DNA of 64,000 bases from an uncultured Conexibacteraceae bacterium (GCA_964536955.1 CAZHZI010000002.1:11050-75049); one strand, 5' to 3'. Numbered from the stretch's first letter, positions 19,814 to 35,974 are shown. Notes: a model not told the origin generated them from the sequence alone. Numbers and translations: made by a program.

Positions 19814-20824
19814 ATGTCGCCGATGCCCCCGCCAGGCTCAGGAAAACCGGTGCTCATCACCGGCGGCGGCGGATTCATCGGCGGTCATCTCGTCGGTGAG
19901 CTGCTGCGACAAGGACACGAGGTGCGGTCGGTCGACTGCAAGCCGCTCGAGGAATGGCATCAGCTCTTCGAGGCGGCCGACAATCGCGTTCTCGACGTCT
20001 CCCTGCTGGAGCATGCGCGCGCAGCCGTCGATGGCGCGAATTGGGTCTACAACCTCGCCGCCGACATGGGCGGCATGGGCTTCATCGAAGGCAACAAAGC
20101 GCTTTGCATGCTTTCGGTCCTGCCCTCCACTCACGTCCTGATGGCCGCCCGCGACGCGGGCGTGGAACGCTTCTTCTACTCCTCCTCCGCCTGCGTCTAC
20201 GCCGCCGAGAAGCAGGAAACGCCTGAGGTTCCCGCGCTGAAGGAGTCCGACGCCTACCCGGCAATGCCGGAGGACGGCTATGGCTGGGAGAAGCTCTTCG
20301 GCGAGCGGATGTGCCGCCACTTCATGGAGGACTTCGGCCTGGAAACCCGAGTCGCGCGCTACCACAACGTCTACGGGCCCGAGGGAACCTGGACGGGCGG
20401 CCGCGAAAAGGCGCCGGCGGCGATCTGTCGCAAGGTCGCGGAGGCCGCGCTGAGCGGATCCACCGAGATCGAGATCTGGGGGGACGGTCAGCAGACCCGC
20501 AGCTTTATGTACATCGACGACTGCGTGGAGGGAACACTGAGGATCAGCGAAGGTCCCCGCGTGGAGCCGATCAACCTCGGCTCCTCGGAGCTGGTCACGA
20601 TCGACGGCCTGGTCGACATCGTTGAGGAGATCGCGGGCGTCGAGCTGGAGCGCCGCTACAAACTGGACGCGCCTCAAGGAGTGCGGGGACGGAACTCCGA
20701 CAACACCTTGATCCGGACAACCTATGGATGGGAGCCATCGATCGGCCTTCGTGAGGGACTCGAGGAGACCTACTCGTGGATCTTCGCCGAAGTCAAGCGG
20801 GAACTCGCCACTTCGGGGGCTTGA
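19814..20824 (+). CDS. gme: GDP-mannose 3,5-epimerase (plant GME-type SDR)
   Basis: Strings matching plant GME as I recall it: VLITGGGGFIG, NLAADMGGMGFI, RFFYSSSACVY, LKESDAYPA, GTWTGGREKAPAAICRK, IWGDGQQTRSF, GVRGRNSDN. The start is uncertain (ATG 19814 or GTG 19766). Confidence 0.8.
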   Translation: MSPMPPPGSGKPVLITGGGGFIGGHLVGELLRQGHEVRSVDCKPLEEWHQLFEAADNRVLDVSLLEHARAAVDGANWVYNLAADMGGMGFIEGNKALCMLSVLPSTHVLMAARDAGVERFFYSSSACVYAAEKQETPEVPALKESDAYPAMPEDGYGWEKLFGERMCRHFMEDFGLETRVARYHNVYGPEGTWTGGREKAPAAICRKVAEAALSGSTEIEIWGDGQQTRSFMYIDDCVEGTLRISEGPRVEPINLGSSELVTIDGLVDIVEEIAGVELERRYKLDAPQGVRGRNSDNTLIRTTYGWEPSIGLREGLEETYSWIFAEVKRELATSGA

Positions 20825-20836
20825 GAGAGAGCTGGC

Positions 20837-20843
20837 GAGGAGG
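20837..20843 (+). promoter_or_regulatory. Shine-Dalgarno (GAGGAGG) 6 nt upstream of the GTG start at 20850
   Basis: Sequence ggcGAGGAGGtcggcgGTG. It supports the trimmed start, which yields a signal peptide (VYLRRLTAISLTLWAMGAASASAIA). Confidence 0.5.
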
Positions 20844-20849
20844 TCGGCG

Positions 20850-22375: not shown

Positions 22376-23041
22376 ATGGAGCCGGCGACAAGCTGGAGAA
22401 CGGAGGAGCACCGGCTCCCGGCGCCGGCTCGCGAGGTGCATGTCTGGCGTTCGGAGCTCGAATGCGAGGAGTGGCCCGCCGCCGATGGTTTGCCGGTCGA
22501 CGAGCGCCGGCGCGCGGCGCGACTGATGATCCCCGACGCCCGCCGGCGTTGGGTCGCGGCACGCTGGATGCTGCGCGGAGTGCTGGGCCGTTACCTGGAG
22601 ACGGATCCGGCGAGAGTCCAACTGCGGCTCGGCGACCGCGGCAAGCCGGCACTCGCCGAGCCCTCCGCCCCACTGCGCTTCAGCCTCAGTCATTCCGGCG
22701 ACCTCGGCCTGATCGCGGTAGCGCAAGAGCGGGAGGTCGGCATCGACGTCGAGTGGATCGATCCCGTCCGCGACGTAGTCAAGCTCGCCCCCCGGGCCCT
22801 CGATCCGATCGACGCGGCTGCCGTCCGCGCCGCCTCTCCCGACGACCGATCGGTCATTTTCCACCAGGCTTGGACTCGCCGAGAGGCCGTTGCCAAGTGC
22901 CTGGGGGGCGGCCTCACAGCGCCACTCCCGCCAGACCCGGTCGCCGTATCGGATCTCGACCCGGGACCAGCCTTTGCAGCGGCCATCGCAGTCGCCGGCG
23001 GCGACGTCCCGCCCCTACGGCTGTTCAGTACAGGGCCTTAA
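22376..23041 (+). CDS. 4'-phosphopantetheinyl transferase (Sfp/EntD type)
   Basis: VHVWRSEL..., FSLSHSGDLGLIAVAQEREVGIDVE, FHQAWTRREAVAKCLGGGL: the two-lobed Sfp-type pattern (G-x-D-x-E and W-x-x-K-E-A-x-x-K). Confidence 0.8.
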   Translation: MEPATSWRTEEHRLPAPAREVHVWRSELECEEWPAADGLPVDERRRAARLMIPDARRRWVAARWMLRGVLGRYLETDPARVQLRLGDRGKPALAEPSAPLRFSLSHSGDLGLIAVAQEREVGIDVEWIDPVRDVVKLAPRALDPIDAAAVRAASPDDRSVIFHQAWTRREAVAKCLGGGLTAPLPPDPVAVSDLDPGPAFAAAIAVAGGDVPPLRLFSTGP

Positions 23042-24141
23042 GGCCGTGCGCGGCCGCCGGTCAGATCGACGAAGGTGTGCCAGGCGGGCTTTGGCTTGAA
23101 GCGGGGGCCCTGGCGGAAGAGGCCAACCGAGTCGCAGAAGTTGCAGGAGCCTGGGACGTCCTTCCAGGAGAACCAATAGGTGGCCTTGAGGTTGAGGCGC
23201 CGGCGGTTCGCGATCAGGTAGCGGTAGGAATCGCGCAACTGGCGGGCCTGGCCGGCACGGCCCTGCTCGAAGGCGACCTGCCTGAAGTTATTTTGGGAAC
23301 CCCAACCCAACTCGGTGAGGTAGAGGCCGGCCCCGGGGTCCCGGTTCTCGCGGATGACCGTGCGCATTCCCTCGGTCAACTCCTCCAGTGTGTCGGCATC
23401 AACCGCATAGGGGTGCAGAGCGACCCCGTCGAACTTGGATTTGATCCCCGGCACCCGGTACAACTCATCGAGGAAGTCGGCCGCAGCCATCCCCCGCCTC
23501 CCGCGCTCATCGGGGTCGCCGAAGAGGCCAGAGAGGACGACCTTGCCCCCGGGATCGGCGCTCTTGATCGCCCCGTAGGAGAGCTTCAGCAAACGCGCGT
23601 AGCGGGTCGGGGAGACCGGGAAGGCGAAGTAGAAGAAGTTCGCCTCGTTCCAGATCTGCCAGGTGCGGATTGGAGACGGGCTCGGGATCGCCGGTTCGTA
23701 CTTGACCACACCAGGCGCATGCTCCGCCCAGAACTCACCGCCTGGCCCGTAGCGTTCCACCGCTGCCTTGACGAAGGCCACCCAGGCCTGCCGTGCCCGG
23801 CCGCTGTCGATCGGCATAGCGGTCGGCTTGCCGGCGAGCCAGCGAGGGGTCCCGTAGAGGAACGGGAGGACACGCAGCCCCCCACGCGCGGCGGCCCCCA
23901 CCGCCTGGTCGACGCCGCTCCAGTTGTAGCCGCCCTTCGCAGTCGGCTGCACCACCTCCCACGGCACCGCCAACCGGATGCTGCCGATCCGACCGGCCCT
24001 CATGTACTCGATGTCGGTGTCGGTCAGGGTCGTCTGCGGCGCGACGCCGAAGAAGTCCGGCGGAAGCGCCTGGGCTCCGGCCGGAGCGGCCAGCGCGCCC
24101 ACGAGGGCGAGGAGAGCGAGTGCGGTCTTGGGAGTTCTCAT
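23038..24141 (-). CDS. Secreted clan GH-A glycoside hydrolase (PslG/GH39/GH5-like TIM barrel)
   Basis: Start MRTPKTALALLALVGALAAPAGAQA (signal peptide). Candidate acid/base in IWNEANFFYF and candidate nucleophile in LYLTELGWG. The family assignment is approximate. Confidence 0.65.
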   Translation of the reverse strand: MRTPKTALALLALVGALAAPAGAQALPPDFFGVAPQTTLTDTDIEYMRAGRIGSIRLAVPWEVVQPTAKGGYNWSGVDQAVGAAARGGLRVLPFLYGTPRWLAGKPTAMPIDSGRARQAWVAFVKAAVERYGPGGEFWAEHAPGVVKYEPAIPSPSPIRTWQIWNEANFFYFAFPVSPTRYARLLKLSYGAIKSADPGGKVVLSGLFGDPDERGRRGMAAADFLDELYRVPGIKSKFDGVALHPYAVDADTLEELTEGMRTVIRENRDPGAGLYLTELGWGSQNNFRQVAFEQGRAGQARQLRDSYRYLIANRRRLNLKATYWFSWKDVPGSCNFCDSVGLFRQGPRFKPKPAWHTFVDLTGGRARP

Positions 24142-24220
24142 TCGGTGCGGCAAGGCACGGACGTGCGGGTCACTTCCTAACACGCCGCGAGCGCTGCGGT
24201 AGCGCCGGGAAGTTAACGGC

Positions 24221-26398: not shown

Positions 26399-27499
26399 CT
26401 ACGGCAGGCTCTTGTAGGCGTTGAAAGAGGGCTTTTTGGAGCCATCGGCCCCCAGCAGGCCCCATGCGGCGCCGCCATCTTCGATTGACTGGTCCATGAG
26501 GGTGAACCAGCCGAGACCGGCCACGTAGGGCGTTCGGCTCGCGATCTGGTAGGCGGCTTTCAGCCGGACCGCCTGCTCGCGCCGCGATACGAAGAAGCCG
26601 CTGAACAGGTCGAGTGGACGGTCGGAGACGATTGTCCACTCGGAGAGCCACAGCCTCGGCACCTTGCGGTGTCCAGCTAGATAGGCAGCCTTGATTTCCG
26701 CGAACAGGGTGTCGACGTCGTTGAACCCGCGGAAGCGCCCGAGCGGCCCGTCATGCAACCGCGGGAAGCGTGCGTCGAACGGATTGTGTCCCCACAGGTC
26801 CATGCGCGGGGGGCGTCCGTTCTTGAGCTTCATCGCCCGGATGAAGTCCGGCGCCATGATCGTGCCGCCGTTCAGCGTCATCCCGCCGATCACCACGTTG
26901 CGCGGGCTCGCCCGCTTCAGGGCCGCGTAGGCGGCATCCAGGAGCGCGGCGTATCGCTGTGGCCCGCGAGGCTGCCCGCGCTTCATCGGCTGGAAGTTGT
27001 CGCTTCGACTGGGCTCGCCCCAGATCATCCACGTGCGGATGCTCGGGTAGCGGCGGCCGGCGGCGTAGAGAAAATCCGAATAGGTCCTGGGACTGGTCGG
27101 CGCCCATATCGCCGAGCGTGCCCCATTCGCCCATCCCGGCGCACGCTGGACTAACGCGGCGGGCTGAATTCCGTACTGGGCAGATTGCTCAACGATCGTG
27201 TCGATCGACCCCCATTTGTAAGCGGGGTCATTGGGATCGCGGGGCTGGAGGGGTCGGGTGGGGGCGATCTCATCCCAGTGGATCTGGAATTGGAAGACAT
27301 CGACTCCGAGTTCGCGATAGATGGGAAACGCCGAACAGGCTTGTGTTGTGGTCGGGCACGAAGCGTCGCCGGCAGGAAGCTCGTAAGGGCCCCAGATCGA
27401 CTTCAGGAGCTTGGCGTGCGCCACCGTCGGGGCTGCCAGTGCAAGTGCGCAAATCAGCGCCGCCCAGATGGCACGCTTGGCAAAGATCATCGGCGGCAT
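26399..27499 (-). CDS. Secreted clan GH-A glycoside hydrolase (paralogue-like of 23038..24141)
   Basis: Signal peptide MPPMIFAKRAIWAALICALALAAPTVAHA. Candidate acid/base in WMIWGEPS and candidate nucleophile in LWLSEWT. The start lies 1 nt downstream of the upstream Wzy_C-TPR gene stop, so they form an operon. Confidence 0.6.
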   Translation of the reverse strand: MPPMIFAKRAIWAALICALALAAPTVAHAKLLKSIWGPYELPAGDASCPTTTQACSAFPIYRELGVDVFQFQIHWDEIAPTRPLQPRDPNDPAYKWGSIDTIVEQSAQYGIQPAALVQRAPGWANGARSAIWAPTSPRTYSDFLYAAGRRYPSIRTWMIWGEPSRSDNFQPMKRGQPRGPQRYAALLDAAYAALKRASPRNVVIGGMTLNGGTIMAPDFIRAMKLKNGRPPRMDLWGHNPFDARFPRLHDGPLGRFRGFNDVDTLFAEIKAAYLAGHRKVPRLWLSEWTIVSDRPLDLFSGFFVSRREQAVRLKAAYQIASRTPYVAGLGWFTLMDQSIEDGGAAWGLLGADGSKKPSFNAYKSLP

Positions 27500-27500: not shown

Positions 27501-29432
27501 TTAGTCAGCGGCCCCCCCGCTCAGTTCCCGCAATCCGACATCCTGCGGGTTGAGCGCCAACGCACGCTGGTAGTGCCGTCGGGCGGCGGCGGCGTTGCCG
27601 CCACGCACCTCGAGGTCGCCGAGGAGGCCGAGCGTGACGAAGTTGGTGGGCTCTGGGTCGAGCGCATCCTGCAGCGATTGCCTAGCCGCTGCCCGATCCC
27701 CCTGAGTCTCCAGCGCAGAGGCCTGCAGATACAGCGGCGTGATCGATACCGGATTGAGCCAGGCGGCCGTGCGCGCGGAGTCCAGCGCTGCCTGCGATGA
27801 GCGGAAGGCATCCTCTCGCGCCTTGCGAACGTAGAGGTCGGAAAGGAACAGGAAGGTAACGCTGACCAGCGCCGCCGCCAGCGCCGCGGCCCCGGCGATG
27901 CGCCCAACCGACCACCGCGACCGGCCACTCGCGACCCCAACGCCCACCTCTTCGTCCTGGTCGCCAGCCGCGGCCAGGCTCAGCGCCAGCACGCTCAAGC
28001 CCAGCAGACCCGGAAGGAGCCATAGCCAGTCGGTAAGGCACTGGGCGAGCACGGTGGCACCGGCGGCGGCCAGGCCAGCTACCCACATTCGGTCCCTTGG
28101 CGTCACGGCTCGCGCCCGGCGAGCGATCGCCATCCCTACGGCTCCCAACCACACGGCGAACAGCGCGAAGCCGATCAGCCCGGTCTCCGACAAAAGCTTC
28201 AGCGGCAGGCTGTGGGGATCGCTCAGGTTCCTGTCGGTCTGCCGATCGCGGTAGTAGGCGAACTGGTAGCTGCCCGCTCCCATGCCTGCCAGCGGATTCT
28301 CGCGAAACTGGTCCCAAGCCACGCCCCAGAGGTCGGAGCGCTGACCGCTGACGGTCCCGAGGCGGGTGGAGCCGGTGACGGCCTCCGGCTCGATGTCCTC
28401 GAACTCTTCGAGCTTGTCGTTCACATAGCTGACCGGGTTGCCGATCCTGGCCACACCGAGCGCTCCCACGCCGATCGACAGGATGACCAGGGCGCCGGCC
28501 CCGAGTTGCCGCAGCCGCAGATCGAATGCCGGCGAGCGCAGCCCGTTGTCGAAGACGAAAACAAACAACCCAGCGAGAAAGCACAGCGCCGACGTAACCG
28601 CAAGCGCGGTCGCCGCGGTGCGAATGTCCGCCTCACTGGCCACCCCGGCGCCACCGTCGAAAGCGTCGAACGGCGTCAACATGGAGCCGGAGGCGACCCC
28701 GATTGCGCCGACGGCTGCAATCGCCGCCCAGGAGCGCCGCAACCGATCGGGACCTATCGCCAGGGAAACCGCTGCGCCTGCGGCGAAGCCGATCAGCACG
28801 CCGCGCGACTGCGTGAGGAAGGCCAGTCCAAGGGCAAGCACGGCCACCGCGAACGCCGCCGCTCGAATGCCCGAGGCCAACCCCCGACGGGCCGCCACCC
28901 CGATCAGTGGCCAGACGGCGAATGCGAACAGCGCGGCGGTCCCGTTGCGGTAGCCGATCGGGGAGTCGAGCCGCCCGGCGAGAAAGAGATCGGCCCCGTC
29001 GACGAACAGGCCCGCCAGCGTCACGACCGCGACGACACCGACGCCGGCAAACAACCCGATGCCGAAACGGTCCCGCCACCGGCCGATGCCGGCGGCGATT
29101 ACCAGCGTCCAGAGAGCCGCGTAGAAGGTCGTCCGAGCGGCGTCCTCCCAGGCCAGCGCCGCACTCTCAGACCAGGCCGCACTCAGCAGGACGTATCCGG
29201 CGAAGGCCCAGATGGCCACGGTTGCCACGGCCAGCGGGCCACGACGGGGAATCAACAGCCCGCCCGTCGCCGCTTGGGCGACAAGCATCGCCAAGGCGAG
29301 GATCGTCAGGGGCGCCCAGTAGCGCAGGTCAAAGGCGCCGTCCCACCAGGCCGAGACCACGAGCAGAACGCCAACTAGAGCCACCGGCCACGCTCCAGCG
29401 GCCTGCGGCGGGCGCGTGGATCCGTCTACCAT
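27501..29432 (-). CDS. Wzy_C (O-antigen ligase / O-oligosaccharyltransferase family) membrane protein with C-terminal TPR repeats
   Basis: Many TM helices. Wzy_C periplasmic loop: GTVSGQRSDLWGVAWDQFRENPLAGMGAGSYQFAYY...SDPHSLPLKLLSETGLIG. TPR tail: QGDRAAARQSLQDALDPEPTNF...GNAAAARRHYQRALALNPQD. Start set at MVDGSTRPP (29432); upstream Met codons would overlap the divergent gene. Confidence 0.75.
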   Translation of the reverse strand: MVDGSTRPPQAAGAWPVALVGVLLVVSAWWDGAFDLRYWAPLTILALAMLVAQAATGGLLIPRRGPLAVATVAIWAFAGYVLLSAAWSESAALAWEDAARTTFYAALWTLVIAAGIGRWRDRFGIGLFAGVGVVAVVTLAGLFVDGADLFLAGRLDSPIGYRNGTAALFAFAVWPLIGVAARRGLASGIRAAAFAVAVLALGLAFLTQSRGVLIGFAAGAAVSLAIGPDRLRRSWAAIAAVGAIGVASGSMLTPFDAFDGGAGVASEADIRTAATALAVTSALCFLAGLFVFVFDNGLRSPAFDLRLRQLGAGALVILSIGVGALGVARIGNPVSYVNDKLEEFEDIEPEAVTGSTRLGTVSGQRSDLWGVAWDQFRENPLAGMGAGSYQFAYYRDRQTDRNLSDPHSLPLKLLSETGLIGFALFAVWLGAVGMAIARRARAVTPRDRMWVAGLAAAGATVLAQCLTDWLWLLPGLLGLSVLALSLAAAGDQDEEVGVGVASGRSRWSVGRIAGAAALAAALVSVTFLFLSDLYVRKAREDAFRSSQAALDSARTAAWLNPVSITPLYLQASALETQGDRAAARQSLQDALDPEPTNFVTLGLLGDLEVRGGNAAAARRHYQRALALNPQDVGLRELSGGAAD

Positions 29433-29441
29433 GCGCGCTTC

Positions 29442-30026
29442 ATGCTCAAGCGCTCCTGTTTGACCGGCGCCTTGGCGCTCTGCATGCTCGCTCATTCGGG
29501 CGGAGCATACGCAGCATCTGTCCACGCGGCCCCCGGCGATCCCCCTGCGGGGAGCCCCTCGGGACAGATCTATGAGCTGCCTTTCGAGAAGGGCCGCTCA
29601 GACGCCGCGCCGAAGGGCAGCGGCGGCACCAGCGCTGGAGGCGGGGGTGCCGCCAGCGCTGGAGGCGGTGGCGAAGCGACATCCCCCACCGACGATGCGT
29701 CAGTGGAGCCGTCGCTCTACAGGTCGGAGAACAACTTCGGCTCGTCGTCGCAGGTACCCGGGAATCCCTCCCCTGAGAACAGCGCCTCAGGTGGCGAGGG
29801 CAATGCGACGGACAACGGACATGAAGACGATGCTGCGGGAGGCGCCACGGGGACGGGGTCGAGCAACGGAGGCGGGCCTACGCGAATCGGAGTCGCGGCC
29901 AGTGGTGTCACAGGCTCCGGCAACACCTCCCCAGCCGGCAACTTCGCCCTGCTTGGCGTCATCGCCCTGATCGCGGTCGCGGTCGGAGCCGCCTCGCTCA
30001 AAGCGAACCGGCTCAGGGCACGGTAG
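29442..30026 (+). CDS. Secreted low-complexity Gly/Ser/Ala/Pro/Thr-rich protein with C-terminal TM anchor and basic tail
   Basis: Clear signal peptide (MLKRSCLTGALALCMLAHSGGAYA). ~140-aa low-complexity region (GSGGTSAGGGGAASAGGGGEATSPTDD...NSASGGEGNATDNG...GSGNTSPAGN). C-terminal FALLGVIALIAVAVGAASLKANRLRAR. No recognisable family. Confidence 0.6.
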   Translation: MLKRSCLTGALALCMLAHSGGAYAASVHAAPGDPPAGSPSGQIYELPFEKGRSDAAPKGSGGTSAGGGGAASAGGGGEATSPTDDASVEPSLYRSENNFGSSSQVPGNPSPENSASGGEGNATDNGHEDDAAGGATGTGSSNGGGPTRIGVAASGVTGSGNTSPAGNFALLGVIALIAVAVGAASLKANRLRAR

Positions 30027-31125
30027 CCGCGGAGCCGGCCCAGGCGACCAACTCCCGAACGCAGCGCTTCCCCGCCTCGCCGTCGCCGTAGATCGCGAGA
30101 TCGGGCGCTTCGACGTCGCGGCGGCCGAGCAGTTCGGCCAGCGCTTGCGGGGCCAGGTCCGCATCCAAGCCGACCAGGCGGTTCCAGCCACTTTCGACTG
30201 TCTCCAACCACTCGGTTTCCTCGCGCAGGGTCAGACACGGGATGCCGGCGAGGTAAGACTCCTTCTGGAGCCCACCGGAGTCGGTCAGAACACCTCGCGC
30301 CCGGCGCACCAGGCAGGTGAAGTCGAGGTAGCCAAGCGGCTCGACCACGATCACTTGTGGGTTCGCCTCCAAATCGGTCATCAGGCTGGCCTCCCGGAGC
30401 CTTGCGCGGGTGCGTGGGTGCGCCGGGAAGACCAGCGGCCCATGCCGATCGGCGGCGGCTGCGATCACCTCCATCCCGTGCCGCAGCGCCTCTGGGTCGT
30501 CGACGGTCCCCTCCCTGTGCAGGGTGGCCACGAGATACTCGCCGGGGGTCAGATCGAGGCGATCGAGGATCGCCGACCGTCGCTCGGCGATCGGGCCGAA
30601 CTCGAAGGCGACGTCGGCCATGACATCGCCGACAAGCCGGGCGCGGTCGCCGGCGCCCTCGGCGCGCAGGTTGGCCATCGCCGCCTCCGTCGAGCAGAGC
30701 AGAAGGTCCGCTACGCGATCCGTGACAATGCGGTTGACCTCCTCCGGCATCGAACGGTTGAAGGAGCGCATGCCGGCCTCCACGTGCACGAGGGGCACGA
30801 GCTGCTTCGCGGCGACGAGAGCGGCGCCCAGCGTTGCGTTGGTGTCGCCGTAGACCAACATCGCGTCCGGGGGGTCGGCGATCACCAGCGCCTCCAGCCC
30901 GGTCATCGTCGCCGCCGTCTGCTCGGCATGGGTTCCCGATCCGACGCCGAGGTTCCGATCGGGAGGCGGTAGCCCGAGCTCTTCGAAGAACACCCCGGAG
31001 AGCTCATGGTCGTAGTGCTGGCCGGAATGCACCAGGGTCTCGGTCGCGTGATCGCGCAGGTGTCGCGACACAGCCGCCGCCTTGACGAACTGGGGCCTGT
31101 TGCCGACGACGGTGAGGACCCTCAT
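30013..31125 (-). CDS. UDP-N-acetylglucosamine (or UDP-diNAc-hexuronate) 2-epimerase, non-hydrolysing (WecB/WbpI family)
   Basis: MRVLTVVGNRPQFVKAAAVSRHL...LVHSGQHYDHELSGVFFEELGLP, YGDTNATLGAALVAAK, HVEAGMRSF, SGGLQKES. The alternative GTG start at 31140 is not excluded. Confidence 0.85.
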   Translation of the reverse strand: MRVLTVVGNRPQFVKAAAVSRHLRDHATETLVHSGQHYDHELSGVFFEELGLPPPDRNLGVGSGTHAEQTAATMTGLEALVIADPPDAMLVYGDTNATLGAALVAAKQLVPLVHVEAGMRSFNRSMPEEVNRIVTDRVADLLLCSTEAAMANLRAEGAGDRARLVGDVMADVAFEFGPIAERRSAILDRLDLTPGEYLVATLHREGTVDDPEALRHGMEVIAAAADRHGPLVFPAHPRTRARLREASLMTDLEANPQVIVVEPLGYLDFTCLVRRARGVLTDSGGLQKESYLAGIPCLTLREETEWLETVESGWNRLVGLDADLAPQALAELLGRRDVEAPDLAIYGDGEAGKRCVRELVAWAGSAATVP

Positions 31126-31144
31126 CGGAATGCGCGGCACTCCA

Positions 31145-32248
31145 TCAGGCGCTCGCGTCCAGGCCGGCGACCGCTTGCGCGACCTCGCTCACCTGCGCGT
31201 CGCTCAGCGCCGGCCCCATCGGCAGCGCAAGCGACTCGGCCGCGGCCCTCTCGACCCCCGGCAGCGAGGCATTCGATGCATAGGGCGCCATCGCCGGCTG
31301 GCGGTGCAAGGGCGTCGTGTAATAGGCACGCGCGCCGATTCCCGCTTCGGCGAGCCCGGCCCGTAGCCGATCCCGCTGGGCGCTGCGCACCACGTAGAGG
31401 TGGTAACAGGACTCGCCCCCTTCGGTCTCGAGCGGCAGCTCGACCAGGTCTCCCAAGCCGCTGGCGGCGTATGAGCGCGCAGCCCGTCGCCGCCCTGCCG
31501 TCCATTCGCCGAGATGCGGCAGCAACACTCGCAGGGCGGCAGCTTGGAGCTCGTCAAGACGCGAGTTGTAGCCAACCTCGGTATGCAGGCGATTGTCTTC
31601 GGAGCCGTGGTGGCGCAACCGCCGCGCAGACGCGGCCAAGTCGTCGTCGTCTGTGACGATCGCGCCGCCGTCGCCGAACCCGCCCAAGTTCTTCGATGGG
31701 AAGAAGCTGAAGGTGGCGGCGTCGCCCAGTGCCCCCGCCATCTCGCCGTGAAGGCTTGCGCCAGCCGCCTGAGCGGCGTCCTCGAGCAGGCGCAGCCCGC
31801 GGGATTCGGCGAGCGCTCGCAGCTCGCCGATCGGCGCCGGGTTGCCGAACAGGTGGACGGGCAGCAGCACCTTCGTGCGCTCGCCGACGGCCGGTTCGGC
31901 CGCGGCCGCGGTCATCTCGAACGTGCGCGGGTCGACATCGCAGAACACAGGGCTCGCCCCGGCGTTGACCACCGCTTCGGCCGTCGCGTAGAAGGTGAGC
32001 GCCGGGACGACGACCTCGTCTCCCCGCCCCACCCCGAGGGCACGCAGGGCAATCGTCAGTGCGTCGGTGCCGCTGGCGACGCCGACACAGTGCCGCACCC
32101 CGACGTACGCGGCGAACTCCGCCTCGAATGCCTCAACCTCCGGCCCAAGGATGTAGCGGCCGGACTCCAGCACCGCGCGCTGGCGGTCGGCAACCTCCGA
32201 CAACAGTGGCTCGATCGCAGGCCGGGTCGCAAACAGCGGAACGCTCAT
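31145..32248 (-). CDS. DegT/DnrJ/EryC1/StrS-family sugar aminotransferase (WbpE-like)
   Basis: Start MSVPLFATRPAIEPLLSEVADRQRAVLESGRYILGPEVEAFEAEFAAYVGVRHCVGVASGTDAL. PLP-Lys region: FSFFPSKNLGGFGDGGAIVT. The track ORF extension overlaps the upstream gene. Confidence 0.85.
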   Translation of the reverse strand: MSVPLFATRPAIEPLLSEVADRQRAVLESGRYILGPEVEAFEAEFAAYVGVRHCVGVASGTDALTIALRALGVGRGDEVVVPALTFYATAEAVVNAGASPVFCDVDPRTFEMTAAAAEPAVGERTKVLLPVHLFGNPAPIGELRALAESRGLRLLEDAAQAAGASLHGEMAGALGDAATFSFFPSKNLGGFGDGGAIVTDDDDLAASARRLRHHGSEDNRLHTEVGYNSRLDELQAAALRVLLPHLGEWTAGRRRAARSYAASGLGDLVELPLETEGGESCYHLYVVRSAQRDRLRAGLAEAGIGARAYYTTPLHRQPAMAPYASNASLPGVERAAAESLALPMGPALSDAQVSEVAQAVAGLDASA

Positions 32249-32276
32249 CAACCGAGGAACCCGGTCCTCGCCCGCT

Positions 32277-32843
32277 TCATCGCCAATGCTCCAGCAAGTC
32301 CTCGTCGAGGACTTCGCGAACCTCGCGGGCGGGAACGCCCATGACGACGGCCCGCGGCGCGACGTCGGCGCTGACGACGGCGCCCGCCGCGACAAAGGCC
32401 TCTTCCCCAATCTCGATTCCGGGACAGATCACGGCGCCGCCGCCGATCCGGCAGGCGCGCCCCAACCGTGGGCCCCGCAATTGCTCCCCGCGTCGGTGCC
32501 GCCCCATCGTGTTGTCGTTGGTGAGCGTCACGCCGGGGCCGATGAAGACGTCGTCTTCCACAAGCGAGCCCCCGGCGATGTAACAGCGAGCCTGCACGCT
32601 GACCCGCTCACCGACGACCACGCCGGGGTCGACCGAGCCGAAGCTGCCGATCGTCGAGCCGGCGCCGATCTGGGCCCCGTCGCGAATCTGAGCGAAGTCG
32701 CCGATTCGCGCTCCAGCGGCGATGCTCACCTCCGCGTGCATCACGACATGACCGCCGATCAGCACCTCGTCGCCGATCTCGACCCCGGCGCCGACCAGCA
32801 GGCCCGGCGCCAGGTCGGAGGGCTGGAGCGCCGCCCCGCTCAC
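32277..32843 (-). CDS. Hexapeptide-repeat (LbH) sugar N-acetyltransferase (WbpD/PglD-like)
   Basis: Continuous hexapeptide repeats (GAGVEIGDEVLIGGHVVMHAEVSIAAGARIGDFAQIRDGAQIGAGSTIG...). 188 aa. Lies between the oxidoreductase and the aminotransferase. Confidence 0.8.
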   Translation of the reverse strand: MSGAALQPSDLAPGLLVGAGVEIGDEVLIGGHVVMHAEVSIAAGARIGDFAQIRDGAQIGAGSTIGSFGSVDPGVVVGERVSVQARCYIAGGSLVEDDVFIGPGVTLTNDNTMGRHRRGEQLRGPRLGRACRIGGGAVICPGIEIGEEAFVAAGAVVSADVAPRAVVMGVPAREVREVLDEDLLEHWR

Positions 32844-33871
32844 GCGAGGGCGCCCCGTGACGCGAGCTTGACCGACGTGCCGCCCGACTCCACCGATGAC
32901 TGCAGCGCCTCCAGCACCCGCACCACCCGAACGCCGCTGTCGCCATCGGAGCGCGGCTCCCGTCCGTCGCGGATGCAGCCGACGAAATGCTCACACTCGG
33001 TGCGCAACGGCTCGCCGCCGGGAACCGCGGGGTAGCGAGACTCGCCAGAACGTGCGACGTACTCACCGGCGGAATCGCCGTCGGGGTCAAAGCCCTTGTC
33101 GTAGACCATGAGCTTGCGCTCAGCCGCCATGTCGTCGAAGGTCGCCATGCACTTGGAGCCGACGACCGTGAAGCGCCGCTCCTTGTGTGGGTCGAGCCAA
33201 GAAAGATGCAGGTGGGCCGCCACGCCGGACCCGAAGGCAAGGTAGGCGAAGACGACGTCCTCGACGCCGTCTCGCACGTAGCTTTCGCCGCGGGCGCTGA
33301 CCTCGACGGGGACCTCGCCGGTCAGCGCCAGGACGACCGAGACGTCATGCGCGCCGAGACTCCACAGGGCGTTCTCGTCAGCCCGAAGCTTGCCGAGGTT
33401 GAGGCGCTGGGAATAGATGTAGTGGACCTCCCCCAGCTCCCCGGAGTCGGCAAGCTCCTTGAGCGCCTCGACCCCAGGGTGGTACTCGAGCAGATGGCCG
33501 ACCATCAGAACTCGACCACGCGCCCTCGCAAGGGCCGAGATCCGTTCCGCGTCGGCAACGCTCTGGGCCAGAGGCTTTTCAACGAAACAGTCCTTGCCGG
33601 CCTCGATCACCCGCTCGGCCATCGCAGCGTGGGTGGAGACCGGCGTGGTGACCGCCACCGCGTCGAGCCTCTCGTCGGCGAGCAGCTCACCAAGATCGTC
33701 CGTAAAGCGCACTTTTGGAAAGCTCGAGCGCGACTGTTCTTCGCGCGAGGCGTCCGTGTCGCAGCACCAGGCCAGCTCACAGCCCGGGATGAGATCCAGG
33801 TTGCGAGCGACATTGGACCCCCAGTAACCCAAGCCGACAACGCCGACCTTGATCTCCCGCGCCGTCAGCAA
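32840..33871 (-). CDS. Gfo/Idh/MocA-family NAD-dependent sugar-nucleotide 3-dehydrogenase (WbpB-like)
   Basis: IKVGVVGLGYWGSNVARNL Rossmann start, DAVAVTTPVSTHAAMAERVIEAGKDCFVEKPLA, HLLEYHPG. ATGA-type overlap with the downstream acetyltransferase. Confidence 0.85.
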   Translation of the reverse strand: MLTAREIKVGVVGLGYWGSNVARNLDLIPGCELAWCCDTDASREEQSRSSFPKVRFTDDLGELLADERLDAVAVTTPVSTHAAMAERVIEAGKDCFVEKPLAQSVADAERISALARARGRVLMVGHLLEYHPGVEALKELADSGELGEVHYIYSQRLNLGKLRADENALWSLGAHDVSVVLALTGEVPVEVSARGESYVRDGVEDVVFAYLAFGSGVAAHLHLSWLDPHKERRFTVVGSKCMATFDDMAAERKLMVYDKGFDPDGDSAGEYVARSGESRYPAVPGGEPLRTECEHFVGCIRDGREPRSDGDSGVRVVRVLEALQSSVESGGTSVKLASRGALA

Positions 33872-33887: not shown

Positions 33888-34688
33888 CTAGCGCGGGGAG
33901 CCCAAGCCCAGCGCGAAGATCAACGGCACGATCGCGATCGCGATCCCAACCCCGGCGTAGACAACCGATCGCCGCTGCGCCGGGGACGACGCCTTCCCCT
34001 GTATGCGCTGCCAGCCAAGGATGGCCGGCAAGATCAGCGTCTGGCACAGGACGACGAAGTCCTGAGCCAGCGAACGCGACCGCGCGTAGACGAGATCGAG
34101 CGCAACCTTGTCCGGCAGCAGCTGATCCCGGTAGTAGGCCTCCGGGTCGCCATGCAGGCTGAGGAGCCTCGCTTCCACGCCTGCGTACCGCAACTGGGTG
34201 GGTCCGGTGATGCCCGGGGGCACCGCCAGGATCTGGCGGTAGTCCTCGGCGTGCATGTCCACGAACTCGTTCAACTCCGGTCGCGGCCCCACAAAGCTCA
34301 TCTCGCCGCGAAACACGTTCCACAGCTGCGGTAGCTCGTCCAACCGAGCCCTGCGTAGGAACCGGCCGACGGGCGTGATCCGGAGGTCCTCTGCGCCGGC
34401 GATCGCGTTGCCGGCGACACCGATCTTCATCGTGCGGAACTTCAGCATCTCAAAGGCCCGGCCCCCCCTCCCGACCCTCCTGGCGCGATAGACGATCGGC
34501 CCAGGGGAGTCGAGAAAGACGGCGAGGGCGACCAGCATGGCCACCGGCAAGACAAATGGAACGAGCACGACAAGTGCGATCAGATCGAAGGCGCGCTTGG
34601 CGGACATCCAGCCCGCAGCGGAGACCGGAACGCCTCCCAGGACGGCGACGCTGGAGGCCACTTCCGGCTGCTGGTCGGATTGCCTCAT
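33888..34688 (-). CDS. Small monotopic phosphoglycosyl transferase (PglC/WbaP-C-terminal-domain type)
   Basis: KRAFDLIALVVLVPFVLPVAMLVALAVFLDSPGPIVYRARRVGRGGRAFEMLKFRTM, RITPVGRFLRRARLDELPQLWNVFRGEMSFVGPRP. Start set at MRQSDQQ (34688); 34766 and 34889 are alternatives. Confidence 0.8.
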   Translation of the reverse strand: MRQSDQQPEVASSVAVLGGVPVSAAGWMSAKRAFDLIALVVLVPFVLPVAMLVALAVFLDSPGPIVYRARRVGRGGRAFEMLKFRTMKIGVAGNAIAGAEDLRITPVGRFLRRARLDELPQLWNVFRGEMSFVGPRPELNEFVDMHAEDYRQILAVPPGITGPTQLRYAGVEARLLSLHGDPEAYYRDQLLPDKVALDLVYARSRSLAQDFVVLCQTLILPAILGWQRIQGKASSPAQRRSVVYAGVGIAIAIVPLIFALGLGSPR

Positions 34689-34819
34689 CTGGTTAGCCGG
34701 AGGGTACTGAGGGAAGCGCTGGGAAAAACGTTGAACGTCTTCGGAGCAATCGCTACTGTAGATCATCGGTCCGGAGTTGGCTGCGGGCGAGAGGTCCAAC
34801 CGCTTAGGGGGTACTGCGT

Positions 34820-35974
34820 TTGAACTGGGACGTGCCGCTGTGCCGGCCCGCATTTCGCGATGAGGAGCTTGCTGCACTGGTCGAGACATATCGGTCCGGC
34901 TGGCTGACCGTCGGTCCGCGGACAGCCGAACTCGAGTCGGCTTTTTGTGCCTACACGGGAGCTCGCCATGCCGTGGCTGTCAGCAGCTGCAGCGCCGCCC
35001 TCCATCTGGCCACCTTGGCTGCGGGGCTGAGCGAGGGAGACCAGGTCGTGGTCCCCTCGCTGACCTTCACCTCGACGGTGAACGCCATTACGCACGTGGG
35101 CGCGGTCCCGCGCTTTGCCGATATCGCCGACGTCACTCAGCCGTGGCTATCTACCTCGGCGGTGGAGGCGACGCTCGACCACCGCACGGCTGCCGTGATG
35201 ACGATGGCCTACGGAGGGCATGTAGGCCAGGTCGTCGAGCTTGCCGAGCTTGCCGAGCGCATGGATCTGATTTTGCTCGAAGACGCGGCTCATGCATGTG
35301 GCTCCAGGATCGGCGGCCGCCACGCCGGCACCTTTGGCCTCGCCGGCGCCTTCAGCTTCTCCGCCAGCAAGAACATCGGCATTGGCGAGGGTGGGATGCT
35401 CGTCACCGACGACGACGAGCTGGCGGAGCGCGTCCGCGAAGGTCGTTGGCATGGGCTCAGCTCCTCCAATTGGGAGCGCCACCATGAAGCTGCGCCCGAA
35501 TACGAGCTTGGCGATCTCGGTTTCAACTACCGGATGGACGATCCCCGCGCCGCCCTCGTCCACGCCCGCCTGCGCTATCTCGACCATGACAACCGCCGGC
35601 GGGGGGCCATCGATTCGGCCTACCGGGAGGCGTTTGCCACCTATGAGCTGATCGAGCCCACCGCACCGTCCCCAGCGGGGGAGCCGGCGAGCCACTGCAT
35701 GTTCACGGCCGTGCTGGACGAGAGCGTCGACCGCGAGGCCTTCAGGAGATCCTTGGCAGACAAGGGGGTGCAGACGAGCGTCCACTACCCGCCGGTCCAC
35801 AAGAGCGACGTCTATGCCCGGTTAGGGGTCTCGCTGCCGGTCACCGAGGCGTACGCGCGCCGCTCCGTGACCCTGCCGCTGTTTCCCGAGATGGAGAGCT
35901 GGCAGCAGGAACTCGTGGTGGAAGCGATTGGCAAGTCCCTTGGGCACTTGTCCCCGGCCACTATCGCCGCCTAG
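34820..35974 (+). CDS. DegT/DnrJ/EryC1/StrS-family sugar aminotransferase (second copy)
   Basis: TTG start preceded by aGGGGGt, 7 nt upstream. LCRPAFRDEELAALVETYRSGWLTVGPRTAELESAFCAYTGARHAVAVSSCSAALHLA. Lys region: FSFSASKNIGIGEGGMLVT. Confidence 0.8.
   Translation: MNWDVPLCRPAFRDEELAALVETYRSGWLTVGPRTAELESAFCAYTGARHAVAVSSCSAALHLATLAAGLSEGDQVVVPSLTFTSTVNAITHVGAVPRFADIADVTQPWLSTSAVEATLDHRTAAVMTMAYGGHVGQVVELAELAERMDLILLEDAAHACGSRIGGRHAGTFGLAGAFSFSASKNIGIGEGGMLVTDDDELAERVREGRWHGLSSSNWERHHEAAPEYELGDLGFNYRMDDPRAALVHARLRYLDHDNRRRGAIDSAYREAFATYELIEPTAPSPAGEPASHCMFTAVLDESVDREAFRRSLADKGVQTSVHYPPVHKSDVYARLGVSLPVTEAYARRSVTLPLFPEMESWQQELVVEAIGKSLGHLSPATIAA

Follow-up and report, generated by a model that had tools for sequence, protein, structure and literature searches.

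A 64,000-nucleotide stretch of DNA from an uncultured Conexibacteraceae bacterium, referred to here as the window, holds a divergent gene pair that encodes a polytopic Wzy_C protein with a TPR tail and a small, membrane-anchored, mostly disordered partner. We tentatively read the two products as a dedicated protein-glycan ligase and its acceptor, an explanation to which we give somewhat less than half of our confidence. It is favoured by the conserved pairing, which is repeated independently in a 28-31%-identical paralogue, by the WaaL-like fold of the enzyme with its invariant His391 and loop Arg residues, by the likeness of its external TPR to peptide-binding TPR3 modules, and by the invariant hydroxyl residues in the short motifs of the partner. 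The gene content of the window, a weak but consistent NCBIfam resemblance to the O-oligosaccharyltransferase (O-OTase) TfpM and to an exosortase-associated ligase, and the precedents of WsfB and of other O-OTase genes that adjoin their acceptor genes point the same way.

The enzyme and its partner

The reading frame of the enzyme gene is uninterrupted over 27501..29525 on the minus strand, and its start site is ambiguous on the sequence. A GTG at 29384, preceded by GGAG-N8, yields the 627-aa product also called in the database, whereas an ATG at 29432, without a Shine-Dalgarno sequence and 9 bp from the ATG of the partner, would yield 643 aa; the latter is still plausible because the homologue consensus extends about 12 residues beyond the GTG. 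Both divergent promoters presumably lie in the intergenic region, where no sigma-70 consensus was found, an absence that is uninformative for the host phylum. The protein scores 60.7 bits against Pfam Wzy_C (cut-off 31.7) and 27.6 bits against TPR_2 (cut-off 27), with weaker matches to further TPR models, so that the description of 27501..29432 (-) in an earlier note on this DNA, as a Wzy_C protein with a TPR tail, holds. Hydropathy analysis predicts 14 TM helices. More than 580 homologues are 57-72% identical, and all 19 diverse family members that we compared match Pfam Wzy_C.

Within the 90-residue catalytic loop, R341, G347, R349, P364, G367, G369, Y377, R381, T383, D384, R385, N386 and H391 are invariant, as judged from alignments of 15, 19 and 110 sequences; H391 and the arginines R341, R349, R381 and R385 are so in the alignment of 110. 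The motif around H391 fits the published ligase motif, H[NSQ]x9Gxx[GTY]. By position, H391 would be the counterpart of H338 in E. coli WaaL and of H349 in PglL, each an essential His (PMC3643930); the mapping onto WaaL R215, R288 and H338 is drawn from residue spacing only. The AF2 model (pLDDT 90.5, pTM 0.90) has a WaaL-like fold, with WaaL 7tpg_B as its top Foldseek match in the PDB (E 8.7e-5, probability 1.00, TM 0.57 normalised to the target), at 15% sequence identity; a sequence profile did not detect WaaL in the PDB. The PDB matches of the model include no Wzy_C-type polymerase structure, and the WaaL likeness fits a ligase or a polymerase alike.

In the model, an unbroken helix (residues 493-525) links TM14 to the TPR domain, for which Foldseek returns the peptide-binding TPR3 modules CTPR3, SGT, RPAP3 and OGT. 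Counting TM helices from the catalytic loop, we predict that the TPR domain is extracytoplasmic, on the same side as the ectodomain of the partner.

The partner was described in the earlier note as a signal peptide followed by a low-complexity middle and a TM helix with a basic tail; each of these is evident in its 194-aa sequence. The signal peptide is MLKRSCLTGALALCMLAHSGGAYA↓A, and the ectodomain (residues 25-166) consists to 74% of G, S, A, T, P and N. The public database gene call gives an identical product (P0121). At the sequence level the partner is a real, undescribed protein family: it has at least 209 homologues, all annotated as hypothetical, and matches neither Pfam nor NCBIfam. 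Conservation in this family falls not on the low-complexity stretch but on two short motifs and on a Ser/Thr next to the membrane. Motif B has conserved hydroxyl positions at S91, S95 and S101-S103 in 55 sequences, and at the juxtamembrane motif close relatives have GNTS where distant ones have AGSTxPSY. The linker between the motifs drifts in length from 14 to 96 aa, which lends no support to the earlier idea of the low-complexity region as acceptor segment. The tripeptides that had been singled out there are present, NAT at 121-123 and NTS at 161-163; NAT is unconserved, and NTS is kept only in the close clade, within the juxtamembrane GNTS. We know of no established role for the N-x-S/T sequon as a signal for Wzy_C-type O-linking enzymes.

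Table 1. Coordinates of the two modules and of the features named in the text, counted from the first nucleotide of the window.
Feature	Coordinates	Strand	Basis and details
Wzy_C-TPR protein 2	2..1603	+	533 aa seen, full length ~670 aa; Pfam Wzy_C 54 bits
Large Bac_transf phosphoglycosyl transferase	1465..3093	+	Pfam; operon with Wzy_C-TPR 2
Second PslG-like secreted paralogue	23038..24183	-	381 aa; weak Glyco_hydro_42 match
Secreted PslG-like glycoside-hydrolase-like protein	26399..27499	-	366 aa; PDB sequence match to PslG 4zn2/5bx9, E 4.4e-7
Wzy_C-TPR protein 1	27501..29384	-	627 aa from GTG 29384; Pfam, homologues, AF2 model
Three-repeat TPR domain, ~residues 526-627	27504..27809	-	Pfam TPR models; Foldseek
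TM14, residues 496-514	27843..27899	-	joined to TPR by continuous helix
His motif H391-S-x9-G402-x-x-G405 (HSLPLKLLSETGLIG)	28170..28214	-	read from sequence; H391, G402, G405 invariant
Large extracytoplasmic catalytic loop, residues 313-402	28179..28448	-	hydropathy boundaries; Pfam Wzy_C match covers loop
Divergent intergenic region	29385..29441	.	57 bp (9 bp if enzyme starts at ATG 29432); start coordinates
Partner family 1, candidate glycan acceptor	29442..30026	+	194 aa, type-I membrane-anchored, mostly disordered
Signal peptide, residues 1-24	29442..29513	+	AYA↓A cleavage motif, read from sequence; orthologues have signal peptide too
Motif A: D33-P34..S38-P39-x-G41..Y44..P47....R52-x-D54-A55-A56-P57	29538..29612	+	89-100% conserved, 55 sequences
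Motif B: S91...S95-E96-N97-x-F99-G100-S101-S102-S103-x-V105-P106-G107	29712..29762	+	82-100% conserved, 55 sequences
Juxtamembrane GNTS (160-163), TM helix (168-186), basic tail KANRLRAR (187-194)	29919..30023	+	sequence and alignment
Small Bac_transf phosphoglycosyl transferase	33888..34889	-	Pfam

Conservation of the pair and its genomic setting

An HMM of partner family 1 finds a match in 66 of 80 related genome loci (E 1e-15 to 1e-52), and the gene adjoins a divergent Wzy_C-TPR gene in 64 of the 66 Solirubrobacterales loci that hold it. A search from the partner side gave three independent contigs, and in each of them (3/3) the partner is flanked, at a distance of 22-78 bp, by a divergent Wzy_C(-TPR) gene. 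A detector for the partner's architecture (signal peptide, low complexity, TM helix, basic tail), run over all six frames of the 64-kb window, returned the partner as its single ORF; this result and the HMM matches in 66 of 80 loci together indicate that the arrangement is not due to chance. The earlier note's proposal had hinged in part on whether the two genes are ever neighbours elsewhere, and they are, as a divergent pair, across the Solirubrobacterales. A subclade of 10 loci retains the TPR and has no partner within 8 kb. The enzyme is 41-72% identical across the order while the neighbouring sugar-modification genes differ between clades, a pattern that would fit a ligase with relaxed donor and fixed acceptor specificity better than a repeat-unit-specific polymerase.

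The second Wzy_C-TPR gene, which had also been noticed at the start of the window, runs across the window edge, which removes its 5' end, and the gene of its own partner lies beyond the left edge. Its product is about 28-31% identical to protein 1 (31% over 285 residues in the C-terminal half). Among 80 metagenome loci, 55 have flanks that reach far enough, and 51 of these hold a family-2 partner, so that a candidate acceptor gene beside the enzyme, a trait of O-OTases generally, is seen for both families. Of the 80 loci, about 60 hold a PslG-like gene, 43 a GT2 gene and 62 the large Bac_transf phosphoglycosyl transferase, directly downstream of the enzyme gene. Family-2 partners consist of a signal peptide, a QY motif, a G/S-rich linker, GGSSPLVPIL, a TM helix and RQRRQR, and have a conserved cytoplasmic C-terminal VSPEAS motif; the juxtamembrane region, TM helix and tail of partner 1 align with the GGSSPLVPIL-TM-RQRRQR part (hhalign probability 96%). 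The 381-aa PslG-like protein belongs to a family that adjoins partner 2 in other genomes, and is 40% identical to the module-2 neighbour in locus L083 and 26% to the 366-aa protein.

The gene for the 366-aa PslG-like protein, whose ATG lies one base past the stop codon of Wzy_C-TPR 1, is, judging from the sequence, translationally coupled downstream of the enzyme. A PslG-like gene is found in 34-43 of the 80 module-1 loci, directly downstream in the close clade, and an orthologue of the 366-aa protein has a weak GH5 match. The small Bac_transf phosphoglycosyl transferase, whose gene lies no more than 8 kb from the pair in 41-47 of 80 loci, is likely the initiator of the glycan handled by module 1. 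Each of the two Wzy_C-TPR enzymes is thus linked to a secreted hydrolase of the PslG-like kind as well as to a phosphoglycosyl transferase.

Overall, the window contains two phosphoglycosyl transferase genes, two Wzx genes, the two Wzy_C-TPR genes and a separate PF01901 polymerase-like gene beside a Wzx; among the roughly 55 window ORFs scanned, there was no LCP ligase, PCP or ABC transporter, and no Wzz, GNVR or tyrosine-kinase domain. This inventory favours the ligase-acceptor reading. A Wzy polymerase is typified by a PCP/Wzz in its locus and by being the sole polymerase, neither of which applies in the window, although some Wzy systems scatter such genes; the polymerase reading is weakened by the missing PCP/Wzz and the separate PF01901 gene. 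On the other hand, enzyme 1 could be the only polymerase of the pathway, since within 8 kb of module 1 it is alone among polytopic proteins in being consistently conserved. Sortase, exosortase and rhomboid/rhombosortase genes were found neither in the window nor in the conserved loci, and no gene for glycolipid-anchor biosynthesis was recognised in the conserved module.

Proposed transfer to a protein and its alternatives

The analysis shows the gene structure, the conservation, the synteny in both paralogous families, the fold and, from TM counting, the topology. The donor, the acceptor and its site, and the roles of the TPR domain and the hydrolase, as we infer them, would fit together as follows. 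The phosphoglycosyl transferase and the glycosyltransferases of the island would assemble a glycan on undecaprenyl pyrophosphate, and a Wzx flippase would carry it to the outer face of the membrane. There, the WaaL-fold enzyme (27501..29384) would move it en bloc onto a hydroxyl residue of the partner (29442..30026). The extracytoplasmic three-repeat TPR, held on its rigid helix just above the membrane, would dock a conserved short motif of the partner and thereby bring a conserved Ser, Thr or Tyr up to the His and Arg residues of the active site, level with the membrane surface; we regard Y44, S101-S103 and, next to the membrane, T162/S163 as candidate acceptor sites. What results would be a proteoglycan anchored in the membrane, comparable, for a monoderm, to lipoteichoic acid or to lipid A-borne O-antigen; the co-transcribed PslG-like hydrolase may trim or release its glycan. 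The second module would do the same job with another partner family and its own initiating transferase.

The earlier note had arrived at an O-OTase with its neighbour as acceptor partly by elimination, reasoning from the lack of a lipid A-core in a monoderm towards a protein acceptor. This argument fails, as Wzy_C proteins of monoderms are also repeat-unit polymerases, such as the SscD/TuaE-like proteins (PMC11841062) and pneumococcal Wzy (PMC12502699), and in one case a lipid ligase, TacL, which acts on a glycolipid in the synthesis of Streptococcus pneumoniae lipoteichoic acid (PMC5727136). The proposal is thus partly supported: gene pairing, fold, topology and the second paralogue's own partner speak for it, whereas its basis in low complexity and the lack of the PglL-specific domains do not.

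The main rival, which we consider unlikely but serious, is that the enzyme is a Wzy-type repeat-unit polymerase (cf. PslJ, SscD, TuaE) of a secreted or wall polysaccharide. The PslG-like protein would then be a failsafe endoglycosidase, and the partner a non-substrate accessory that acts through TPR/TM contacts as a scaffold or as a chain-length modulator in place of a PCP. Wzy_C proteins do polymerise in several monoderm and diderm systems (PMC11841062, PMC11340318, PMC13434223), and in Psl the endoglycosidase PslG accompanies a Wzy polymerase (PMC13434223). The translational coupling of a PslG-like gene to enzyme 1 keeps the polymerase reading alive, and the tie of such genes to both paralogues counts against a ligase with its own acceptor. 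The window holds no PCP gene, so that a substitute is conceivable; the enzyme is the sole polytopic protein consistently present in the conserved loci; and TuaE is a weak NCBIfam match in 7 of the 19 members. Polymerases, however, usually vary with the chemistry of their repeat unit, and this enzyme is conserved across the order though the sugar genes around it vary. The PF01901 gene beside a Wzx offers a separate polymerase-like protein in the same island, and the window scan revealed no LCP ligase to join a polymer to the wall. Nor does the partner, a Gly/Ser-rich disordered type-I protein, look like a co-polymerase: those known to us are structured two-TM proteins, and it is hard to see what a Ser-rich linker of variable length between conserved motifs would do in an accessory subunit.

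It is rather improbable, in our view, that the enzyme acts as a ligase on an acceptor other than a protein, be it a membrane glycolipid, as for TacL and lipoteichoic acid, or another envelope polymer, with the partner as a TPR-bound but unglycosylated regulator, chaperone-like tether or spatial marker. The fold is that of WaaL, whose acceptor is a glycolipid, and the monoderm precedent TacL is a Wzy_C ligase for a glycolipid (PMC5727136). The 10 loci with enzyme and TPR and no adjacent partner fit this alternative as well and disfavour a dedicated protein acceptor. Yet each paralogue has its private partner family with hydroxyl-bearing motifs, which is more than a generic regulator explains, and a gene for glycolipid-anchor biosynthesis was not recognised in the conserved module. 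The TPR domain also sets the enzyme apart, as to our knowledge none has been reported for TacL or WaaL. Even less credible, and in our judgement very improbable, is that the C-terminus of the partner (motif, TM helix, basic tail) is a sorting signal like PEP-CTERM, GlyGly-CTERM or LPXTG, cut near the juxtamembrane G-x-S/T-S and joined at its new C-terminus to a glycan or lipid, with the Wzy_C-TPR enzyme involved or coupled. Such a tripartite C-terminus is common to both partner families, and the layout recalls exosortase systems, of which the 'putative O-glycosylation ligase' and the TPR protein PrsT give weak NCBIfam matches. But the partner has no match among the NCBIfam sorting-signal models even with E allowed up to 1, neither the window nor the conserved loci showed an exosortase, rhombosortase or sortase gene, and the conservation of the cytoplasmic VSPEAS in family 2 suggests that the tail is retained and functional. 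We also know of no peptide cleavage by WaaL-fold enzymes.

Returning to the ligase with its own acceptor, a broader claim, possible but in our estimate more doubtful than this reading of the pair itself, is that Solirubrobacterales, and perhaps other Thermoleophilia, use TPR-bearing WaaL-fold enzymes to ligate oligo- or polysaccharide chains onto dedicated, membrane-anchored, disordered carrier proteins, with at least two parallel enzyme-carrier-hydrolase modules per genome. If true, they would make envelope glycoconjugates of a class not described so far, comparable to O-antigen or lipoteichoic acid but anchored through a protein.

Comparison with known systems

By its Pfam score, its polytopic architecture with a His/Arg loop and its structural match to WaaL, the enzyme belongs to the Wzy_C/WaaL-like superfamily (PF04932). 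With WaaL (7tpg) it shares the Wzy_C domain, the invariant His in a motif of the H-[NSQ]-x9-G-x-x-[GTY] type and extracytoplasmic Arg residues; WaaL has 12 TM helices, no TPR and lipid A-core as acceptor, whereas the enzyme exceeds it by two TM helices and carries a TPR on the outside. We rejected an assignment to the PglL/PglS class of O-OTases, which is defined by PglL_A and Wzy_C_2 domains flanking Wzy_C (PMC3643930, PMC12645811): the window protein shows neither PglL_A (PF15864) nor Wzy_C_2 (PF11846) at E up to 0.01, and the 19 members show neither at E up to 1. The best NCBIfam resemblance, weak but consistent, is to TfpM in 18 of the 19 members and to the putative O-glycosylation ligase associated with exosortases in 15 of them, with TfpM scoring 30-31 bits, far under the equivalog cut-off of 600. 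The missing PglL domains and this low score weigh against the ligase-acceptor reading.

TacL resembles the proposed system as a monoderm Wzy_C ligase that moves an Und-PP-linked polymer to a membrane anchor, but its anchor is a glycolipid, and the 397-aa protein has no TPR and no reported dedicated protein partner. In Pseudomonas Psl, PslJ and PslG combine a Wzy-type enzyme with a secreted hydrolase in a Wzx-dependent locus, as in the module described here (PMC13434223); Psl, however, includes PslE, a PCP, and PslD, an OPX, and lacks a partner that is small, anchored and disordered, whereas we find no PCP and instead the TPR and the partner. PEP-CTERM/exosortase loci for polysaccharides likewise bring together an O-antigen-ligase-like protein (TIGR03097), the TPR protein PrsT and secreted Ser/Thr-rich proteins whose C-terminus comprises motif, TM helix and basic tail. 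Here, there is no exosortase, PEP motif or CTERM model match, and the TPR is fused to the ligase-like enzyme.

O-OTase genes are known to adjoin those of their acceptors (PMC3643930, PMC12645811, PMC9829042), and PilO/TfpO, TfpM and PglS-ComP each place a Wzy_C enzyme beside a dedicated acceptor gene, as the pair in the window would. TfpO and TfpM also lack PglL_A and Wzy_C_2, but no TPR tail has been described for them. The TfpO, TfpM and PglS acceptors are type IV pilin-like proteins of diderms encoded in the same orientation as the enzyme, whereas the candidate here is divergently encoded in a monoderm and belongs to a new, non-pilin family: partner 1 lacks a class III signal peptide and matches nothing in Pfam.

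Also close in layout are the S-layer O-OTases of monoderms, WsfB of Paenibacillus alvei and WsaB with WsaA of Geobacillus stearothermophilus, polytopic Wzy_C systems in glycan loci with a Bac_transf initiator, as in our module. The combination of Wzy_C and a C-terminal TPR in the enzyme agrees with the description of WsfB (PMC2943079), a likeness at the level of described architecture, while WsaB has a separate TPR protein encoded adjacently (PMC2943079). These systems come from Firmicutes, their loci have no reported PslG-like partner such as the module here has, and their acceptor is a large folded S-layer protein modified at Tyr, Thr or Ser, in contrast to the anchored, disordered candidate of about 150-230 aa, not S-layer-like, that we find in Actinomycetota (Thermoleophilia). 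In both cases, the enzyme moves, or as we propose would move, an Und-PP-linked glycan to a surface protein.

A divergent gene pair and its conservation

The open frame of enzyme 1 encodes a Wzy_C domain (60.7 bits against a Pfam cut-off of 31.7) followed by C-terminal TPR repeats, and it lies back-to-back with the gene of a secreted, anchored low-complexity protein, here called partner 1; both had been read in this way in the earlier note, and both readings stand. For enzyme 1, the public protein collection lists a 627-aa product, whose numbering we use; it matches a GTG start at 29384, with GGAG-N8 upstream. ATG 29432, the start chosen previously, yields 643 aa, suits the slightly longer N-termini of homologues and leaves 9 bp before the partner 1 ATG; taken mechanically, the first start of the frame is GTG 29525. 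Partner 1 carries a classical signal peptide cleaved after AYA (residue 24), an ectodomain consisting of 74% G/S/A/T/P/N, and a TM helix (168-186) followed by the tail KANRLRAR. The further Wzy_C-TPR gene that had been placed at the left end of the window was recovered with Pfam as well; its product, enzyme 2, is about 31% identical to enzyme 1 across the C-terminal half. The divergent region gave no match when scanned for sigma-70 promoters, a scan that is uninformative for this phylum. An inverted repeat at the partner 1 start codon was scored as terminator-like by a scan (1 found, 0.1 expected by chance) and may function in translation or as an operator. The public runs holding the sequence are DNA runs only, from a permafrost metagenome, and homologues carrying a source name are annotated as Solirubrobacterales (class Thermoleophilia, Actinomycetota).

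Features of the glycan-biosynthesis island, in window positions
Feature	Position	Strand	Remark
Enzyme 2 gene	2..1603	+	Wzy_C-TPR (Pfam); truncated by window edge
Bac_transf initiating enzyme, large	1465..3093		Pfam
Glucose/sorbosone-dehydrogenase-like (GSDH) gene	4039..6174	-	within island
O-antigen-polymerase-like gene	11537..13762		PF01901
Wzx-like flippase	13805..15280		
GC dip	18001..20000		down to 0.588; window mean ~0.67
FkbM-type methyltransferase gene	18187..18939		at GC dip
NAD-dependent epimerase gene	19754..20824		at GC dip
GSDH gene	20724..22373	+	within island
Enzyme 1 open frame	27501..29525	-	Wzy_C-TPR
Inverted repeat	29435..29453	+	GCGCTT-CATGCTC-AAGCGC; spans partner 1 start codon
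Partner 1 gene	29442..30026	+	194 aa; read from sequence
Overlap of 3' ends	30013..30026		14 bp; partner 1 gene and convergent 2-epimerase gene
UDP-GlcNAc 2-epimerase, DegT aminotransferase, hexapeptide acetyltransferase and GFO/IDH/MocA oxidoreductase genes	30013..33871	-	adjoin the pair; acetyltransferase at 32277..32990
Bac_transf initiating enzyme, small	33888..34889		Pfam
Very large glycosyltransferase gene	37965..41930	-	1321 aa; Methyltransf_24, GT2 and GT1 domains
Very large glycosyltransferase gene	48840..52355	+	1171 aa; GT2 and Glyco_trans_1_2 domains
Sulfotransferase gene	53512..54330		
Wzx-like flippase	55182..57191		
Sulfotransferase gene	57239..58195		
Methyltransferase-DMFA2_C fusion gene	59037..61085	+	C-terminal domain of N,N-dimethylformamidase beta-subunit type

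We fetched 80 loci with enzyme 1 relatives from GTDB representatives (one genome per species; best-segment identity to enzyme 1 30-63%). A partner 1 HMM matched in 66 of them, and in 64 of these the partner gene directly adjoins the enzyme gene upstream, in divergent orientation; it lies upstream on the same strand in one of the others and downstream of the enzyme gene in the last. From the reverse side, all three long contigs with independently found partner homologues carry a divergent Wzy_C(-TPR) gene, at a distance of 22-78 bp. The two genes are therefore neighbours in other genomes as well; had they never been, the hypothesis of the earlier note would by its own terms have failed. Among the 14 loci without a partner match, two have no upstream sequence, two are remote (~30% identity), and ten form one subclade (L008, L009, L010, L013, L016, L018, L049, L063, L064 and L074), whose enzymes retain the TPR and are ~50-53% identical to enzyme 1. 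In these ten, a Na+/H+ exchanger gene occupies the upstream position of the partner, and an architecture-based search found no relocated partner within 8 kb; the partner has been either relocated or lost.

Neither Pfam nor NCBIfam has a model that partner 1 matches. With a profile built from 20 orthologues, at least 209 relatives were retrieved from a collection of 5.8 billion proteins, with listed lengths of mostly 145-250 aa; all named relatives are "hypothetical protein", except for two evident mis-annotations. Shortly after the signal peptide follows motif A (D33-P34..S38-P39-x-G41..Y44..P47....R52-x-D54-A55-A56-P57), separated by a Gly/Ser/Ala linker of 14-96 residues from motif B (S91...S95-E96-N97-x-F99-G100-S101-S102-S103-x-V105-P106-G107), and the motif positions are 82-100% conserved among 55 sequences. 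A third element, 2-6 residues ahead of the TM helix, is G-N-T-S in close relatives, while distant ones have A-G-S-T-x-P-S-Y. Judged from its sequences, the family shows itself to be more than low complexity. The HMM matches across the loci, the number of relatives and the architecture, which a detector applied to the 64-kb window in all six frames found in one ORF only, partner 1 itself, exclude a spurious high-GC ORF: partner 1 is a real gene and represents a new family. N-glycosylation at its NAT and NTS sequons was likewise rejected, as NAT is unconserved, NTS is clade-specific, and the Wzy_C-type enzyme class is O-linking.

Fold and topology of enzyme 1

A first AF2 model of enzyme 1, built from 15 sequences, reached a pLDDT of 63, and its fold search matched the TPR alone; we therefore used a model from a 110-sequence alignment (pLDDT 90.5, pTM 0.90). 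The PDB structure it matches best is 7tpg_B, a WaaL O-antigen ligase (E 8.7e-5, probability 1.00; TM 0.57 normalised to WaaL, 15% identity), and all other significant matches fall on the TPR module (CTPR3, SGT, the RPAP3 TPR with Hsp90 peptide and the OGT TPR). Sequence-profile searches against PDB sequences, with full-length enzyme 1 and with the membrane domain alone, did not detect WaaL. Hydropathy yields 14 TM helices. With the catalytic loop 313-402 set as extracytoplasmic by homology and the other loops counted from there, the loops that follow would be placed inside (RRARAVTPRDR), outside and inside, and the TPR after TM14 outside. As TM14 is one unbroken helix up to residue 525 in the model, the TPR is predicted to lie close to the membrane surface.

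The invariant residues (R138, Y145-R146-N147, T191-Q192-S193-R194-G195, R341, R349, R381, T383-D384-R385-N386 and H391) cluster in extracytoplasmic loops, with H391 being the first residue of an H-S-x9-G-x-x-G motif. By position and spacing, rather than by alignment, H391 and R341 probably correspond to H338 and R288 of E. coli WaaL, the equivalents of PglL H349 and R298 (PMC3643930). The PglL-specific PglL_A and Wzy_C_2 domains were found neither in enzyme 1 (Pfam) nor in its 19 family members. In NCBIfam, the O-OTase TfpM (matched in 18 of 19 members) and an exosortase-associated putative O-glycosylation ligase (15 of 19) are the most consistent likenesses, with the polymerase TuaE matched in 7 of 19, all scoring far below the family cut-offs.

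The glycan island and the second module

The entire window, with a GC content of 67%, is a glycan-biosynthesis island, which besides the tabulated genes encodes numerous glycosyltransferases, methyltransferases and sulfotransferases as well as an AlgX-like protein. Among the ~55 window ORFs scanned, genes for PCP/Wzz, LCP or ABC transporters were not found. Export by an ABC transporter, as for the S-layer glycan of G. stearothermophilus, was rejected, given that Wzm/Wzt were not found and two Wzx are present. Directly 3' of enzyme 1, with its ATG one base past the stop codon, is the gene for a 366-aa secreted protein resembling PslG (E 4.4e-7), whose family is present in 34-43 of the 80 loci. 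GT4 glycosyltransferases (58 loci) and small Bac_transf enzymes (41-47) are the commonest companions of the pair, a methyltransferase (33) and DegT aminotransferases (26-32) further frequent ones; enzyme 1 is the sole polytopic protein consistently present.

The four consecutive genes adjoining the pair form a WbpI/E/D/B-like set and suggest a sugar of the 2,3-diacetamido-mannuronic-acid type; the set accompanies the pair in the close clade only and has a rearranged position in the partner-less subclade. The sulfotransferase genes on either side of the second flippase, in a stretch of lower GC (0.61-0.62), hint at a sulfated glycan, and this segment was possibly acquired separately. The 1321-aa glycosyltransferase recalls chain-building and chain-terminating enzymes such as WsaE. 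A DMFA2_C gene also occurs near the pair in an independent contig (L162:7425-8678) and may thus belong to the glycan pathway.

Since the upstream side of enzyme 2 falls outside the window, we fetched 80 metagenome loci for it (L081-L160), in which the full-length enzyme has ~670 aa. In ~60 of them, given sufficient flank, a divergent gene encodes a ~380-aa secreted protein, a distant relative of the 366-aa PslG-like protein. Between this gene and that of enzyme 2, 51 of 55 loci with sufficient flank hold a minus-strand ORF (for example L083:5108-5686) that ordinary GC3-based gene finding had overlooked because of its composition. Its product, partner 2, has a signal peptide (...LALLALACFPVLAQA/DSSG), a QY-S/T-D-x-P-P motif with an invariant Tyr, a G/S/A/N-rich middle of ~100-135 aa, an invariant S-S-P-L-V-P-I-L running into the TM helix, an R-Q-R-R-Q-R tail and a conserved V-S-P-E/K-A-S at the C-terminal end. 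In several loci the 5' end of its gene overlaps the longest possible enzyme ORF, and low-complexity genes of this kind may be under-called elsewhere in these genomes. The two partner families align over juxtamembrane motif, TM helix and basic tail with an hhalign probability of 96%, a figure possibly inflated by composition and the TM helix. On the 3' side of enzyme 2, a large Bac_transf phosphoglycosyl transferase is encoded in 62 loci and a GT2 in 43. With the two enzymes only 28-31% identical, each thus keeps a private partner of shared architecture; no other single observation argues as strongly that enzyme and partner are directly linked in function.

Function and relation to known systems

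The earlier note had argued by elimination that, with no lipid A-core to act on, the acceptor may be a protein. Wzy_C proteins of monoderms, however, have three established roles, as repeat-unit polymerases (PMC11841062, PMC12502699), as the glycolipid ligase TacL (PMC5727136) and as S-layer protein O-OTases, namely WsaB and WsfB, the latter with a C-terminal TPR motif (PMC2943079); the elimination argument therefore fails, and the case depends on the pairing. We tentatively favour, at slightly less than an even chance, that enzyme 1 is a dedicated protein-glycan ligase and its partner the acceptor, because each of two divergent paralogues has kept a partner of its own, because the short partner motifs hold invariant hydroxyl residues with variable Ser-rich spacers between them, and because one conserved Ser/Thr motif sits at the membrane surface, where, going by the WaaL fold, active site and lipid-carrier pyrophosphate would meet. 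The modelled placement of a peptide-binding-type TPR just over the membrane, on the same side, would also favour a ligase with a protein acceptor. Enzyme and partner motifs are conserved order-wide while the sugar-modifying genes vary, a pattern that suits a fixed-acceptor ligase better than a repeat-unit-specific polymerase. The island combines two initiating transferases, two flippases and two Wzy_C-TPR enzymes with a separate candidate for the polymerase, and an LCP ligase was not found among the ORFs scanned, again in favour of ligase and acceptor. The PslG-like hydrolase would then serve to trim the attached glycan or to release it.

The main rival, which we consider unlikely, takes the enzyme for a Wzy polymerase and the partner for an accessory subunit; it can draw on the PslJ/PslG precedent (PMC13434223) and on module 1 having no other conserved polytopic protein nearby. 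Less likely than the polymerase are a TacL-like ligase for which the partner serves as a tether but not as a substrate, which appears improbable, and a sorting-signal function of the partner's C-terminal end, which we regard as very improbable.

Solirubrobacterales are abundant Actinomycetota of soil and permafrost, and to our knowledge their cell envelope has hardly been studied; a literature search found no paper on this enzyme-partner system in the order. If the pairing is what it looks like, their surface glycans are anchored on dedicated carrier proteins via a WaaL-fold ligase; a protein-anchored counterpart of O-antigen or LTA is conceivable, if doubtful. The Wzy_C family, whose acceptors so far are lipid A-core, a glycolipid, and proteins of the pilin or S-layer type, would thereby gain a fourth kind. 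Enzyme and acceptor would also make up a well-defined pair that is linked genetically and has short, conserved motifs for recognition; O-OTases whose acceptor motif is small and portable are in demand for bioconjugate engineering (PMC12800693, PMC9829042). As to how such enzymes choose protein substrates, the fused extracytoplasmic TPR would offer a testable model, and even the polymerase reading would define two novel protein families and, for Wzy enzymes, an accessory subunit of a new design. O-OTases encoded next to their acceptors are already known, as is a Wzy_C O-OTase with TPR in a monoderm. New are the fusion of a predicted WaaL fold with a probably external TPR domain, conserved throughout an order, the linkage with a PslG-like hydrolase, the occurrence of the complete module in duplicate, and the partners themselves, disordered and anchored proteins of two families not described before.
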